Shown here: positions 6,933 to 59,513 of the stretch, piece by piece | Layout of the letters: each line of letters starts with the position of its first letter | Position numbering within the stretch: position 1 is the first letter of the stretch | NCBI GenBank assembly: GCA_963758495.1 | Contig: CAVWVI010000003.1 | Span: 608,001 to 672,000, forward strand | Direction of reading: 5' to 3' | DNA length: 64,000 nt | DNA from: Oligoflexia bacterium | GTDB lineage: Bacteria > Bdellovibrionota > UBA1018 | Translations under genes and position numbers: made by a program | The notes under the pieces: model-generated | The model's input: only the letters and a program-made list of their open reading frames with translations | What the model was told of the DNA's origin: nothing | Database searches by the model: none

Positions 6933-7139
6933 GTACGTAGTTCCTTTAGGGCTGTTGACAAGCACTGAAAGGAGTCCTGTTGCGCCATAAAGATTAAATA
7001 AGTAGTTCCTTTAGGGTTGTTGGTAAGAACAGTGAGAAGTCTGTTGCGCCGTAAAGATTTGGATTCCCGGCGCAACAAGACTTCTTACTGTTCTTATGAT
7101 TTGAATTCCCGGCGCAATAGGACTCCTTTCAGTGCTTAC
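6933..7139 (+). mobile_element. Palindromic MITE-like element (outer copy) with second copy nested in its loop
   Basis: GTACGTAGTTCCTTTAGGGCTGTTGACAAGCACTGAAAGGAGTCCTGTTGCGCC ... GGCGCAATAGGACTCCTTTCAGTGCTTAC. Confidence 0.85.
6998..7097 (+). mobile_element. Palindromic MITE-like element (inner nested copy)
   Basis: ATAAGTAGTTCCTTTAGGG...GTTCTTAT, flanked by GATTAA / GATTTGAA (degenerate duplication of outer loop). Confidence 0.8.
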
Positions 7140-19673: not shown

Positions 19674-19698
19674 ACCTTCCCCCTCTTCTTAGAAATAG

Positions 19699-19797
19699 AT
19701 AAGCACAGCAAGGAGTCCTGTTGCGCCGTAAAGATTTGGGTTCTCGGCGCAACAGGACTCCTTGCTGTGCTTGTCAACAGCCTTAAAGGTTACTTAC
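19699..19797 (-). mobile_element. Palindromic MITE-like element (loop inverted relative to other copies)
   Basis: ATAAGCACAGCAAGGAGTCCTGTTGCGCC-loop-GGCGCAACAGGACTCCTTGCTGTGCTTGTCAACAGCCTTAAAGGTTACTTAC. Confidence 0.85.
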
Positions 19798-34940: not shown

Positions 34941-36208
34941 TCACGCTTACAGTTTGGAAGCTCGTTGCAATGGTCACTCCACTTACAATCATAGAAGGTT
35001 TCTTTGCAGGTTCAGAAATCGCACTTCTATCTGCAGACAAACTCACCCTTATACAACAATCTAAACAAGGAAATACTCGAGCATCCTTAGCTTTAAAATT
35101 AGCAACTCACCCGGAACAAGTATTTTCAACCACCTTACTCATCACAAGCATCTGCGTCATCAGTAACTCAGCACTCATAGCTCTCTTTTTCTTAGAACAA
35201 TCACTCAAACATGCTGAATGGATAGCAGTCCTTGTCACTTCACCTCTGGTTGTCCTTTTAGGAGAACTCATTCCAAAAACAATTTACCAGAGGAATGCCA
35301 ACTTTTTGGCACCCTGGGTAGCCTATCCTATCCATTGGACGTATTGGTTATTTTACCCCATTACTCGGATTTTATCTTCTTACACAAATCGTCTCTCTCT
35401 TATCATTGGGCCTATAGAAGAGTTGCTCGCAGGAAGACGAAAAACGACTCGAGAGGAAATACGGGCACTTCTCTCATATACAAGAAATGAAACGGAGATC
35501 AAAACAAACGAAAAAAGAATGATCAAACGTATATTTGATTTTCGGTATTCCGAAGCGCAGCATGCGCTCATTCCTCTAGTCAGGGTAGACGCCATTGATG
35601 AGTCTGTTTCAGTTAAAGAAGCATTAGAAAGCTTTGAACGACATCGGCATTCTAGAATGCCTGCATATTTGGAACGCATCGACAACATCGTGGGAGTGAT
35701 AGAAGCAGTTGATATCCTATTTGCTACCGACCTGGAAGAGCCAATTAGTCACTACATCACTCCTGCCCAATACGTTCCGGAAACACAACCCCTTGCAGAC
35801 CTCATGCTTGATATGCGGCGAGAAAATCATGAAATGGCTGTAGTCGTTGATGAACACGGTGGGGCTGTCGGAATTTTGACGTTTGAAGATATTGCCGAAG
35901 AAATTGTTGGAGAAATTAGTGATGAGTATGATTACGAATCCCTGCCTTTCAAGGCAGTCTCAGAAACAAGCTGGGTCGTCAAGGCCAGCATGGAAATCCA
36001 GCAAATAAACGAGATCTTAAAACTTGAACTACCTGAAGGAAACTATGAGACTTTAAGTGGATTTTTGCTTCAACAATTTGGAAGAATTCCAGACATAGGA
36101 GATGAATTGTTCTTTGACACTCCTGCAGGTGCTTTCAAATTTACGATTCAAAAAGCTACCGAGCGACATATAGAAACCGTGCTGATTCAAAAAATGGAAT
36201 CCATCTGA
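34937..36208 (+). CDS. CNNM/DUF21-CBS-CorC (hemolysin family) protein
   Basis: AGSEIALLS, GELIPK, VVDEHGG...EEIVGEISDEYD, YETLSGF. Confidence 0.9.
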   Translation: MITLTVWKLVAMVTPLTIIEGFFAGSEIALLSADKLTLIQQSKQGNTRASLALKLATHPEQVFSTTLLITSICVISNSALIALFFLEQSLKHAEWIAVLVTSPLVVLLGELIPKTIYQRNANFLAPWVAYPIHWTYWLFYPITRILSSYTNRLSLIIGPIEELLAGRRKTTREEIRALLSYTRNETEIKTNEKRMIKRIFDFRYSEAQHALIPLVRVDAIDESVSVKEALESFERHRHSRMPAYLERIDNIVGVIEAVDILFATDLEEPISHYITPAQYVPETQPLADLMLDMRRENHEMAVVVDEHGGAVGILTFEDIAEEIVGEISDEYDYESLPFKAVSETSWVVKASMEIQQINEILKLELPEGNYETLSGFLLQQFGRIPDIGDELFFDTPAGAFKFTIQKATERHIETVLIQKMESI

Positions 36209-36268
36209 CCTATTTTTTTAAATATTTTTAACAAGAAGTCTGTACAATCATTATAAAGAGGCCATTCA

Positions 36269-36679
36269 ATGCAGAAGACAGTGCTCATTGTCGATGATAT
36301 TTCTTTCGTCAGAAAAACTCTCTCAGATATTTTAACAGCAGCACATTATCAAGTGGTTGGGGAAGCATCGGATGGCGCAGAAGCAGTGAATCTGTACGCC
36401 CAACTTCGACCCGATATTGTGACCATGGATGTAGTCATGCCCATGATGAGCGGAATTGATGCCACTCGACGAATTATCAAAGCCGACAAACATGCTAAAG
36501 TAATAATTATTTCAGCCATGGGCCAAGAAAATCTCGTTATGGAAGCGATCAACGTTGGAGCAAAAGACTATATTTTAAAGCCTTTTAGTACTGAAGACAT
36601 TTTAAAAACCGTTGAGCGAACGCTGCAAGGTGAACAAAACATCTTAGCGCGATCGACTCACCGGGAGAAACTGGGTTGA
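36269..36679 (+). CDS. CheY-like single-domain response regulator
   Basis: VLIVDD, MDVVMP, SA, KPF. Confidence 0.9.
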   Translation: MQKTVLIVDDISFVRKTLSDILTAAHYQVVGEASDGAEAVNLYAQLRPDIVTMDVVMPMMSGIDATRRIIKADKHAKVIIISAMGQENLVMEAINVGAKDYILKPFSTEDILKTVERTLQGEQNILARSTHREKLG

Positions 36680-36720
36680 GTGGGATTTAATCAATTAATC
36701 ATGAAAAGGCAGGAAGCCGC

Positions 36721-37257
36721 ATGATTGCACAGGAAGAGACAATACGAAGAGTAGTGAATGCATTACCGCATGAATTTCAATTTTATCATCTTGGAAAAGT
36801 AGAATTGCAATCCATTGATGTAAGCACTGCAAGGAGTCCTGTTGCGCCGGGAATTCAACTCTTTACGGCGCAACAGGACTCCTTGCAATTCTTGTCAACA
36901 GCCCTAGAGGAACTCATTACCATTGATTTTAAGGAAACCGATGCGATCGCGTACCATCTTTTTGGAGACTTACGAGCACTCATCATTATCCTTTTTGCAA
37001 AGGATTTAGATTTCGCGACTTATTCTGAATTGGGCAATGTACTCGCAAGTAAAATAGCCAATCAGTTGAGCTTAGACAACGGAGCAGATATTTTAATTTC
37101 TCCCCCACAACAGCTGAATCACGCTCAAATAGAGCAACTTATCCAAAATAAAAATACGGTTATCAGACGAACTTACACACACTTGAATAAAAACTCGGTT
37201 ATTCCTATAGCAACCTGGGTCTTACCGACTCCATCAGAAGGGTTTGGATATGCTTAA
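36721..37257 (+). CDS. CheC/CheX-like protein carrying an in-frame 36-codon repeat insertion
   Basis: ELGNVLAS and ISPP motifs; adjacent to cheY-like gene. Confidence 0.6.
   Translation: MIAQEETIRRVVNALPHEFQFYHLGKVELQSIDVSTARSPVAPGIQLFTAQQDSLQFLSTALEELITIDFKETDAIAYHLFGDLRALIIILFAKDLDFATYSELGNVLASKIANQLSLDNGADILISPPQQLNHAQIEQLIQNKNTVIRRTYTHLNKNSVIPIATWVLPTPSEGFGYA
36820..36920 (-). mobile_element. Palindromic MITE-like element inserted in frame in CDS
   Basis: GTAAGCACTGCAAGGAGTCC...GGAACTCATTAC, flanked by CATTGAT direct repeats. Confidence 0.9.
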
Positions 37258-37576
37258 AGCAATTGGTTCTTGTTTAAAGATTTTGACCTTTTCAATTCTT
37301 GTATTGATTTTAGGAAATTGGTTCAAATGGGATGGCAGAACGATTTCAGATCAAGTAAAGTTTCACATGGCTCATGCTGAACGTTCCGAAACACTGAATA
37401 CGGTTCGTGAATGGGCACAGAAAATCACTCATGAAGCAAGCAAAGGGGCGCATATTAAATCCATCCATTTCTCCTCTCCTATGACTGTCACAGTACCCGA
37501 AGAGATTTCCCCTTCCGAAAGACAAAAACTTAGAGCACTCATCCAAGAACTCAATAGTTCACATAAAAAAGATTAA
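37250..37576 (+). CDS. Hypothetical protein with N-terminal TM helix
   Basis: ORF overlapping upstream stop; hydrophobic N-terminus. Confidence 0.7.
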   Translation: MLKAIGSCLKILTFSILVLILGNWFKWDGRTISDQVKFHMAHAERSETLNTVREWAQKITHEASKGAHIKSIHFSSPMTVTVPEEISPSERQKLRALIQELNSSHKKD

Positions 37577-37593
37577 AAACCCCAAATTTGATT

Positions 37594-37624
37594 AAAAAAA
37601 ACCCACTTCATTTCTGAAGTGGGT
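37594..37624 (-). terminator. Rho-independent terminator of HU gene
   Basis: ACCCACTTCA-GAAA-TGAAGTGGGT followed by T run on minus strand. Confidence 0.8.
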
Positions 37625-37659
37625 CATCACTTTCATTCAATCGAATGATTCGTATTGAG

Positions 37660-37932
37660 TTATTTCAAACTGTCTTTGAATTCACGTCCTGGGCGAAATT
37701 TTGGAACTGTCATCGCAGGAATCTTAATCTCTTTGCCAGTCTGAGGATTACGACCAATACGAGCTTTACGCTTGGTCTTCGTGAAGGTGCCAAAACCGAT
37801 TAAGGTAACATCATCACCCTTTTTCACACTCTTCTTAATCGTATCTAACGTAGTATTTAAAACCATTTCTGCATCTACTTTGGTCATCTTCGTGTTCTTT
37901 GCCACTGCTTCGATCAATTGAGCCTTGTTCAT
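37660..37932 (-). CDS. hup: HU family DNA-binding protein
   Basis: MNKAQLIEAVA...GFGTF...RIGRNPQTG; AAGGAG RBS. Confidence 0.96.
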   Translation of the reverse strand: MNKAQLIEAVAKNTKMTKVDAEMVLNTTLDTIKKSVKKGDDVTLIGFGTFTKTKRKARIGRNPQTGKEIKIPAMTVPKFRPGREFKDSLK

Positions 37933-47352: not shown

Positions 47353-50300
47353 TCAATACTGGTAATGGAATGACTGGGAATCATGACCAATAGTACCAAT
47401 TTGATAAGTGAACGAGTAATCGATTCCATCTCCAGTTTTCAGCCCCTGAATGACGAGACTCCAGCTCTTATCTTGAGCTTGTATCATTCGAACATTTTGT
47501 TGCAGACCATTTTTATTCACTAGATAGTGAATATCCACAAATCCAAACCCAACCGATGAATTAGTTGGAATGACAGTAATTGTAACTTGTCCATTTCCAC
47601 TCACTACAACGTTTTGGCTCAAATCACCTACCGGCGTTGGCGTTGGCGTTGGCGTTGGCGTTGGTGTTGGCGTTGGTGTTGGCGTTGGCGTTGGCGTTGG
47701 CGTTGGCGTTGGCGTTGGTGTTGGCGTTGGCGTTGGTGTTGGCGTTGGCGTTGGTGTTGGCGTTGGCGTTGGTGTTGGCGTTGGTGTTGGATTCACACTT
47801 GGATAGATAAATTGAAACAGACTCGAATCATGACCAATAGTGCCAATTTGATACGTAAAAGAATAACTGAGCACATCACCTTGTTTCAACCCAGATATAT
47901 TAAGACTCCATGTTCCGTCATTAGCTTGCACCATTCGGACATTCTGCTGAGGATTAGCTTGATTTATTATATAATGGATATCTGCAAATCCGAATCCTGT
48001 TGATAGATTACTTGGAGTGAGAGTAACAGTTACTTCTCCATTTCCGCTCACTACAACCATTTGAGTAAAATCACCTACTGGCGTTGGTGTTGGCGTTGGT
48101 GTTGGCGTTGGTGTTGGCGTTGGCGTTGGTGTTGGCGTTGGCGTTGGCGTTGGCGTTGGCGTTGGCGTTGGTGTTGGCGTTGGCGTTGGCGTTGGTGTTG
48201 GTGTTGGTGTTGGTGTTGGCGTTGGCGTTGGCGTTGGCGTTGGTGTTGGTGTTGGTGTTGGCGTTGGTGTTGGTGTTGGTGTTGGCGTTGGTGTTGGTGT
48301 TGGTATTGGTGTTGGTATTGGTGTTGGCGTTGGCGTTGGTGTAATACCTCCTTGTGATGAAATCAGTGCACCGGCAGGCACACTTAACTGAGTTCCGTCT
48401 GAAAAATTCACCGGAACAGTTGAAGAACTAGAATTATAAGCTACGTATTGACGAACCCCGTTATTGTTAAATACTGCATAGGTGGGAAGATCTGCAGTAA
48501 CTTGAGTATCAAGTTGACCAAATGTATTTAAATTCTGAATCCAATAATAAGTATGGGCGTTTGTCTCTCCGGTTTCGATAGTGTAATTCAGATTATTATT
48601 AAATTCAGCTACAGCTGCAGCAGGGTTATACAGGGCTTCAATACTCATATGAATATCCCTCCATCTATCAGGATTCGATCCACTATGAGTTCTCATATAA
48701 GTTTGATTGGTTTGAAGATAACTTGGATTTCTTCCTAAATAAAGAGAGCCTCCTGTAACTGGCATAAAATTAATACCGTGCAATTCTTCTCGATAACCAT
48801 CCCACCAGATTGAGTAAGCGCCTCCATCAAGCCAAACCATCCCCAAGGTGGGTTCAGGAAAATCTGATGGAATAGTCTGTTTATCAATATTAAACCAATA
48901 CTGCTCGATCGCGGACGCCTCAGTAGCATAAAGATAAATCCCAAAATCGCGAATCGTATCATTGTGTGTCGCGACACCCCAAAGCATCACACCTGACGAA
49001 AAATTCATACTTTCTGATGAAGATTCTTCGTTATTACCAGCAGCAAAAAGAGAGGGCCCACTCGCCCAACCATGACCAGAAAAGGAATCAAACATTCGTA
49101 AAAATGGAAATCGACTGTCCGTTCGGTCCCAGTTATTCGCGTCCTTAATTAAAAGTTCGACCATGCCACCGTATTGACTTTGGGATGCCCAGTTCGAATC
49201 ATATTGAGCAATCGTTGCTGCTGCTTGAATAAAATAACCATAATGAAAATGATGATCATTTAATTGAGTATCAGTTCCGTAACTAGCAGGATAGCCAATG
49301 AGAGTGTTCCAAGTAGAATCATAATAAAATTGACGCGAGTTTTGACCTTGAAACCAGTCCTGCAACCCACTTTTTAATTCGGATAAGAAAAGATCACGTG
49401 CAGCCGTGTAATTAATTTGATCTGCGATGCGAACTAACCTTGCAATTCGACCTAGAGCCTTTCCATACCAGTAGGTATCAGTCCCTGCATTAACACCCCA
49501 ACGATCAGATGGGCTTAGATTATAAATATTATTAACATACTGATAAAGTTGGGCAGATGAAAAACCGTTTATTCCATCTTGTGCTACTAAAGGTAGCTCA
49601 GGTAGAATTCCATTGAAAGTTAATTGAGTTGAAAAACTTGAAGCATCGACTACTTTCATCGTTCCTCGTGAAGAAACATACGTGTAGGAAGTAACCGGAT
49701 CACTCGAATTCATCCATTGATGACGAAACAAAGCTATCAAGGGTCGATTTACATTATTATTTCCACTCTCTTTTAAAACAGTGTCCGCACTATATTGAGT
49801 CACTATCTGAGCGTGCGTTGAATCATAAGTCCAATTAACACTCGTATTTACAACAAATGCATAAGCATGCTGTCGATAAATTTCAAGAGTACTTGTTGTA
49901 TTATCAGGCAATACTGCAACTGAAAGATAGTCTTGTCCATTTTGACTTGACGTTAATTGCGTTGAACTCGGCGAAGTCCAAACTGACCCCGAGGGAGCAA
50001 AGATTCCGTAATTATGTCCATTAACACTAACGCCCAGAACACCACCGTTTTGATACCAGACGACCGGAGTACTGCTAAAATTAATTACCGCATTGCCTCC
50101 GTTTACACTAAAATAAGCATACGGAATACCTTGACTCATTGTGCTTTTTAAAGTTCTAACACCATCACTCCAGACCGCTGTCACAGCCCAATCAGAATAA
50201 CTTTCAACTTCAGTGTCAGAAGAAGTTAATCCTTGTACACCTACACTCAAATCTTGCTGAAATCCATAATGATATTCATGAACCGTCAATCCTAAATCCG

Positions 50301-52656: not shown

Positions 52657-52757
52657 GTAAGTAGTTCCTTTAAGGCTGTCGACAAGCACTACAAGGAGTC
52701 CTGTTACGCTGTAAAGAATTGGATTCCCGGCGCAACAGGACTTCTCGCAGTGCTTAC
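52657..52757 (+). mobile_element. Palindromic MITE-like element (101 bp)
   Basis: GTAAGTAG...GTGCTTAC; flanks CGCTCTAA / CGTTCTAA. Confidence 0.9.
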
Positions 52758-56785: not shown

Positions 56786-56886
56786 GTAAGTAGTTCCTTT
56801 AGGGGTGTTGATTAGCACGATAAGGAGTCCTGCTGCGCCGTAAAGATTTGAATTCCCGGCGCAACAGGACCCCTTATCGTGCTTAC
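56786..56886 (+). mobile_element. Palindromic MITE-like element (101 bp) with perfect 8-bp target duplication
   Basis: TGTTTTTC | GTAAGTAG...GTGCTTAC | TGTTTTTC. Confidence 0.92.
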
Positions 56887-59437: not shown

Positions 59438-59513
59438 ATAAACATTAAATCGAGCTCTGTTGCAGCGTAAAGATTCCGTCTTTCGCTACTACAGAGCTCG
59501 ATTTAATGCTTAC
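59438..59513 (+). repeat. Divergent relative of the palindromic MITE family
   Basis: Stem CATTAAATCGAGCTCTGT / ACAGAGCTCGATTTAATG, loop GTAAAGATT, end TGCTTAC. Confidence 0.65.

Follow-up and report, generated by a model that had tools for sequence, protein, structure and literature searches.

How can a gene take up a complete mobile repeat and still keep its reading frame open? The question is raised by a locus in a 64,000-nt stretch of DNA from an Oligoflexia bacterium (the window, whose numbering is used unless a contig is named), at which a putative chemotaxis gene contains a 101-bp hairpin repeat. The insertion comprises the following features:

36721..37257, forward strand: host gene, encoding a phosphatase-like protein of the CheX/CheC fold, 178 aa including the insert (PF04509 E-value 0.002, below the cut-off; fold match)
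36813..36819, forward strand: left copy of the 7-bp target duplication CATTGAT
36820..36920, forward strand: 101-bp MITE copy, GTAAG...TTAC, read in forward frame 1, with seven differences from the family consensus
36822..36893, forward strand: hairpin internal to the MITE copy, with 28-bp arms (36822-36849 and 36866-36893) and a 16-nt loop
36921..36927, forward strand: right copy of CATTGAT (7 bp), its junction bridged by a public contig

The insertion site

An earlier note on this DNA had counted 101 nt of element plus one 7-bp duplication as 108 nt, that is, 36 stop-free codons of the open reading frame, and recomputation gave the same numbers. The element starts exactly at a codon boundary, and a 142-codon open frame is left after excision. 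A 7/7 match of the flanks is expected by chance in 0.08% of cases, as estimated from 20,000 random pairings of unrelated flanks. The hairpin of this copy has a folding energy of -50.9 kcal/mol (z -7.0), and none of 200 shuffles was equally stable. Two stem pairs are broken in the copy without compensation.

The assembly contains about 40 similar copies, one of which could in principle have been misplaced into the gene. Such an artefact is so improbable as to be practically negligible, because the flanking duplication is perfect, the copy has its own sequence (the closest other copies in the genome are 92% identical), and a 151-nt contig of a publicly available DNA run matches positions 36880-37030 with zero differences and thereby spans the right junction. 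This contig comes from one study, possibly that of the source sample. Four DNA runs of the study, each with a small share, cover only short pieces and not the left junction; among the sequencing runs listed, none was an RNA run. Taken together, the in-frame insertion of a mobile 101-bp hairpin repeat into the CheX-like gene at 36820-36920 is confirmed.

The repeat family in the genome

The genome surveyed comprises 3.66 Mb in 5 contigs and has a coding density of about 0.90. It contains 37 near-full copies of the 101-bp element and, above the level of a reversed-genome control, 93 copies or fragments altogether, 79 of which are intergenic, 8 are at gene edges (7 of these cover the last codons and the stop of an ORF), and 6 lie within ORFs. 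The termini are GTAAG...CTTAC, with a short inverted repeat (about 5-9 bp) that is imperfect past 5 bp. The family thus has the hallmarks of a MITE: it is short, multi-copy and transposase-free, and it has terminal inverted repeats, target duplications, and empty sites. Further copies in the window are:

6934..7139, reverse strand: cluster of three overlapping partial copies
19693..19772, reverse strand: partial intergenic copy, hairpin part
52657..52757, reverse strand: full intergenic copy, 8-bp duplication with one mismatch
56786..56886, reverse strand: full intergenic copy, exact 8-bp duplication

The window also contains a long tandem repeat region with a 12-nt period (47378-48460) and a separate palindrome with 32-bp arms that is unrelated to the MITE (59439-59512).

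Insertion targets are not fully random. Among the 37 left flanks, T is found at -6 in 22, A at -4 in 28, and A at -3 in 27 cases. In addition, 17 of the 37 copies begin no more than 15 nt from a same-strand stop codon, and 6 have one at their opposite end. In the stems of the near-full copies, where chance would give about 10 double changes, there are 63, and all 63 keep Watson-Crick pairing. They comprise 28 types, 17 of which are confined to a single copy each. This pattern suggests that the hairpin arms may copy each other (arm-to-arm); alternatively, the RNA structure may be under selection, or the changes may have been inherited from donor copies.

An Rfam search of the element yielded only weak miRNA-hairpin matches far under the cut-off, and no DNA match was present in 60 related genomes. 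The pattern of the loop occurs in 2 of 74 other genomes of the family, in one of them as a single match with two mismatches. Accordingly, the search yielded no closely related allele of the CheX-like gene with an empty site. A description of this MITE family was not found in a literature search that covered few subscription journals.

Other repeats accompany the family. A second MITE of 166 bp with ATTGTGCGCC ends is present at C4:456169-456334, C4:837076-837241, and about 18 other places, and is nested in the loop of two 101-bp copies, at the same 8-bp site. Its likely parent is a 1.37-kb IS with similar ends, present in 6 copies (e.g., C3:350185-351551). There are also many fragments of the 101-bp element that comprise only the 3' part (e.g., C1:565240-565297), a tail with an AAAGGA word and TTGACA on the other strand. 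An ATG follows one base after the end of the fragment at C1:565297, and donation of a ribosome-binding site or a promoter by such 3' tails is possible.

Other genes with element sequence

The earlier note had proposed a search for further in-frame copies. Such copies were found in four other genes, so that five genes (CheX-like, zinc-finger, transglycosylase, DegP-like, and mevalonate-kinase-like) contain in-frame element sequence, and three of the six frames of the MITE consensus are open. The four genes are:

C4:1470-2495: C2H2 zinc-finger gene, full MITE copy in forward frame 3
C2:40952-42403: lytic transglycosylase gene, 44-nt remnant plus 7-bp duplication (one mismatch), together 17 codons
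C1:460976-462535: DegP-like gene, 68-nt remnant in reverse reading, N-terminal region
C3:938253-939209: mevalonate-kinase-like gene (TIGR00549 E-value 4.5e-5, under the cut-off), about 13 element-derived residues in a variable linker

Three paralogues of the zinc-finger gene in the same genome lack exactly 108 nt and contain the 7-mer once. These empty paralogues are direct proof of the mobility of the MITE and of a true 7-bp duplication. The copy in the zinc-finger gene carries three of the double-change pairs that preserve Watson-Crick pairing. The 17 element codons of the transglycosylase gene correspond approximately to a gap in 11 orthologues. For the DegP-like gene, the 11 orthologues listed align poorly at the remnant and most are shorter; a duplication is not readable. 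The differing lengths of the genic copies may represent stages of in-frame erosion. An ORF at C4:1091424-1091903 that also spans a MITE copy has no Pfam match and is left out of the gene count.

The zinc-finger gene belongs to a region (C4:1-2495, and also C1:573620-574888) that encodes a tandem protein family with a hydrophobic, signal-peptide-like N-terminus and C-terminal arrays of C2H2 zinc fingers of the eukaryotic type, which are unusual for a bacterium.

The host protein and the position of the insert

The surroundings of the insertion and the motifs of the host protein are:

36269..36679, forward strand: CheY-like single-domain response regulator, likely the substrate of the host protein (PF00072 E-value 2.6e-30)
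36781..36795, forward strand: FYHLG motif, residues 21-25, upstream of the insert
37015..37104, forward strand: phosphatase motif A99-X3-E103-X2-N106-X21-P128, with E, N, and P kept and A replacing D/S at the first position
37244..37576, forward strand: 110-aa ORF overlapping the host gene downstream, no assigned function, position conserved in 19/19 relatives' loci

A cheY homologue adjoins the orthologue of the host gene in all 19 relatives' loci, and the complete order CNNM-type gene - cheY - host gene - 110-aa ORF recurs in each of them. A promoter and terminator scan of 36150-37700 gave nothing on the strand of the host gene. Homologues of the host protein numbered 26 in a single-sequence search and 71 in a profile search. 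The gap that the earlier note had expected in orthologues is present throughout: the insert is absent from 71/71 homologues, and the spacer between G25 and E103 has 77 residues here versus 43-61 in the homologues. P16, F21, Y22, and G25, all N-terminal to the insert, are conserved in the 71 homologues, so the orthologues do not begin downstream of the insert, the case in which the earlier note would have failed.

The best Foldseek matches of the host-protein model are CheX and CheC structures, and the matches to CheC, CheX, and FliY folds have Z-scores of 9.5-11. The superposition on CheX 1squ is nearly the same with the insert (Z 11.0, rmsd 3.3, 125 residues aligned) and for the model of an insert-free orthologue (Z 11.1, rmsd 3.3, 123 residues aligned). 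The host protein therefore resembles the CheC/CheX/FliY phosphatases in its fold, in the E-X2-N-X21-P motif, and in having cheY as a neighbour. The subfamily is divergent, however: it stays under the Pfam and NCBIfam cut-offs (for the host protein 18.4 of 22 bits with PF04509 and 16.8 of 280 with NF041094, while several insert-free homologues do carry PF04509), and a helix is predicted after the motif proline. The host protein itself differs further by its 36-residue insert and by an A at the first position of the family motif, which is given as D/S-X3-E-X2-N-X21-P in the account of PMC12887009. Because D/S is missing at position 99, which is occupied by S in 57 and by A in 2 of the 71 homologues, the protein is named CheX-like only.

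The earlier note had proposed modelling whether the insert lies in a surface loop. It is predicted to lie in a low-confidence loop: its pLDDT values are 50-68, compared with 81-98 for the core. A comparison restricted to aligned ranges would place the insertion point near residues 31-42 of Vibrio CheX, which are described in PMC12887009 as variable, partly disordered, and unused in substrate recognition. According to the models, the 36 residues are disordered, sit in a length-variable, flexible loop, and would leave the core fold unchanged.

The view that removal of the element restores the original protein was borne out for the reading frame and only in part for the length. After excision, the spacer between G25 and E103 has 41 residues, 2 fewer than the shortest one among the 71 homologues, so excision restores the ancestral CheX-like protein only approximately, and a further 6 nt would have been lost near the insertion site at some time.

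Duplication length and reading frame

In 36 near-full copies (one misaligned copy was dropped from the 37), with one mismatch allowed, the duplication has 7 bp in 8 copies and 8 bp in 7 copies, and none is readable in 21. The chance rates of such matches are 1.2% for 7 bp and 0.5% for 8 bp. Among the copies with a readable duplication, the 7-bp class accounts for 6/13 intergenic and for 3/3 genic copies. Random genic insertions were simulated, and the frame stayed open in 4956 of 10021 cases with 7 bp and in 0 of 9979 cases with 8 bp, in agreement with the earlier claim that an 8-bp duplication would break the frame. The further claim that only a frame-preserving variant survived needs correction, since a length of 7 bp is nothing exceptional. 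The 7-bp duplication makes up about half of what the element generates, and frame-keeping insertions are therefore routine.

Only 2 of the 36 near-full copies are inside genes, both with a 7-bp duplication. In view of the coding density, most frame-keeping insertions would thus be lost as well, provided that the choice of targets is nearly random. When the 36 near-full copies were excised in silico at their own duplication lengths, no gene that had been broken by a copy came to light. Six other long frames appeared only at unmatched or unknown lengths, five near the end and one near the start of a frame, and are read as fusions.

The CheX-like gene might instead have lost its frame through an 8-bp insertion and regained it by a small deletion, in which case it would have survived by compensation and not as a member of the 7-bp class. 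A C is present both before the left CATTGAT and as the last base of the element, so an 8-bp duplication minus one base also fits this copy, and the shortened linker would agree with a deletion. Yet unambiguous 7-bp duplications exist, including the one proven by the empty zinc-finger paralogues, and a single event suffices, with no frameshifted intermediate. We therefore consider this two-step history improbable and direct 7-bp insertion the better explanation.

Possible selection on the CheX-like gene

The host gene keeps 32/34 family-conserved columns and is on a par with its homologues in this respect. Frame 1 of the MITE contains a stop in 27/34 intergenic copies, and in 9/12 of those with comparable length and divergence, but none in the copy in the CheX-like gene. 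In a neutral simulation, the gene stayed open in 7-19% of the runs at 7% divergence and in 32-49% at 3%. An excess of synonymous changes in the insert was not significant (3 of 7 changes, p 0.24), and 6 of the 7 differences of this copy are shared with further copies and could have been inherited. Together, the comparisons give modest support for selection on the gene after the insertion.

It is also conceivable that the insertion is harmful. The gene would then be a pseudogene at an early stage, backed up by a second CheX: although open, it would be crippled or hardly expressed, due to ribosome stalling, a cut by RNase III, or blocked folding. Indeed, a second CheX-family gene is present in the genome (C2:28536-28829) and could relax selection on the host gene; the very stable hairpin would be part of the mRNA; processing of Correia hairpins by RNase III has been published; and S is changed to A at motif position 99 in a protein that is 2 residues short beside the insertion site. 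However, A at position 99 is found in two insert-free homologues as well, the conserved columns are retained, the 178 codons contain neither a stop nor a frameshift, and frame 1 is open here in contrast to most intergenic copies. We regard a harmful insertion as rather unlikely.

At the other extreme, the insert could have been domesticated, with the peptide or the RNA hairpin tuning the phosphatase or the operon mRNA. A helix is predicted within the insert (residues 52-66), the amino-acid changes include a conservative I-to-L and L-to-I, and MITE RNA hairpins regulate mRNAs in other bacteria. Against this, the confidence of the helix is low (56-68), only a single genome is known to contain the insert, and the broken stem pairs are uncompensated. 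The idea that the helix fills the helix slot of CheC-type proteins received no clear support: aligned residues with the insert and for an insert-free orthologue were 140 versus 133 for CheC 1xkr and 128 versus 124 for CheX 1xko, a comparison between two different proteins that shows no clear gain. Domestication thus appears unlikely, and a tolerated, nearly neutral insert remains the preferred reading.

A probable mobilizer and a sister family

According to PMC12888890, the ends of IS66 elements begin with GTAAGC or GTAACC; PMC12898284 reports an 8-bp repeat for an element of the ISBst12 group. The GTAAG...CTTAC ends together with the 8-bp duplications point to an IS66-type mobilizer, and the MITE was likely moved by an IS66-type transposase. 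With the ISBst12 group of the IS66 family it shares the GTAA termini and, in about half of the copies with a readable duplication, the length of 8 bp. A single-ORF member resides in the genome (1720 bp, 3 copies, GTAA ends, one copy with an exact 8-bp duplication), and its intact transposase gene is located at C3:100911-102515. In contrast to IS66 elements, the MITE lacks a transposase, has a terminal repeat that is short and imperfect, and generates 7-bp duplications as frequently as 8-bp ones. The resident element has GTAA alone in common with the ends of the MITE. An autonomous parent with matching ends and an IS66 TnpB gene were not found in the genome, and the exact right-end pattern had no match in metagenome contigs; the parent may be lost or unsampled. 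At C4:40180-40290 and C1:101690-101790, a collapsed IS66-type element is present, its ends fused in a short palindrome and its flanks the same as those of two full copies.

A sister family has kept the loop sequence, the tail motif, and the hairpin layout of the MITE, with different arms and with TA ends. It was found at 64 metagenome loci, 63 of them from one assembly, and at three sites in the same genome (C3:414292, C3:1127052, and C3:1146717); three eroded relatives are present in a Bdellovibrionia MAG. Of its 46 scoreable copies, 36 have TA...TA and none has a 7/8-bp duplication. All six frames of its consensus are closed.

Discussion

The explanation that we consider probable, based on sequence comparison and structure prediction, is that a 101-bp non-autonomous element with 7/8-bp duplications, likely moved by an IS66-type transposase, inserted in frame into a variable loop of a CheX-like protein. 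An IS66-type transposase would insert the element with a target duplication of either length, and 101+7 preserves the frame, whereas 101+8 never does. Selection would then act as a filter, first for the 7-bp class, next for an open frame, and last for a tolerant site. The 36 added residues would likely be translated and tolerated as a near-neutral passenger, and the host protein, with its predicted phosphatase core intact, would retain CheY-P phosphatase activity. Later, inserts may be trimmed in frame to short remnants.

A broader scenario is possible, though doubtful as a whole: one genome might harbour a complete route from selfish DNA to protein linkers. An IS66-type transposase with a 7/8-bp wobble would render half of the insertions frame-neutral; in-frame trimming would lead from 36 codons (CheX-like, zinc-finger) to 17 (transglycosylase) and about 13 (mevalonate-kinase-like); arm-to-arm copying, even in coding DNA, would let paired residues change together; and the family would have become protein-coding when a hairpin core, elsewhere with TA ends and closed frames, acquired GTAAG/CTTAC ends.

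The earlier note had likened the insertion to Rickettsia palindromic elements (RPEs), which sit in frame in Rickettsia genes (Ogata et al., 2000, 2002, as cited in PMC10969869 and PMC2229807); an RPE-bearing guanylate kinase is reported to be translated and active (PMC2229807). The likeness, for which RPEs were compared by their published description, lies in the way of working: both are hairpin repeats in the range of 100-150 bp with open frames, which occur in frame in unrelated genes and are apparently neutral or slightly harmful for the enzymes that carry them. The MITE is not counted as an RPE, given its target duplication and IS66-like ends. While the target duplication of RPEs is listed as uncertain, that of the MITE is plain and sets the frame. 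About half of the RPEs are described as genic, compared with 5-6 of 93 MITE copies, and the MITE inserts are read in three or more frames instead of encoding a single conserved peptide. Moreover, the host is not Rickettsia; the homologues and the related MAG are named Bdellovibrionia or Bdellovibrionota.

ERIC/IRU, YPAL, RU-3, and the 107-bp Correia elements are also described as short MITEs that are mostly intergenic near gene ends, are occasionally fused in frame, signal peptides included, and have related forms that differ in the openness of their frames (PMC2229807, PMC3184786). ERIC, Correia, and RUP are reported to carry TA termini, in contrast to the GTAAG/CTTAC ends and 7/8-bp duplications of the 101-bp MITE. 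In-frame peptides are established for RPE, ERIC, YPAL, 107-bp Correia, Anabaena MITEs, BRE, and BOX (PMC10969869, PMC2229807, PMC3184786). The insert in the CheX-like gene thus points to no new type of system. The notion that the repeat is a source of new protein sequence is borne out at the DNA level, and the locus adds a case from the Bdellovibrionota to the known donation of peptides by MITEs, with an empty-site proof inside one genome. It also illustrates a rule for such donation, namely that the length of element plus duplication is divisible by three, which is set here by the 7/8-bp wobble. The CheX-like protein and a form lacking the 36 residues make a simple pair for the question of whether such inserts are neutral or ever useful.
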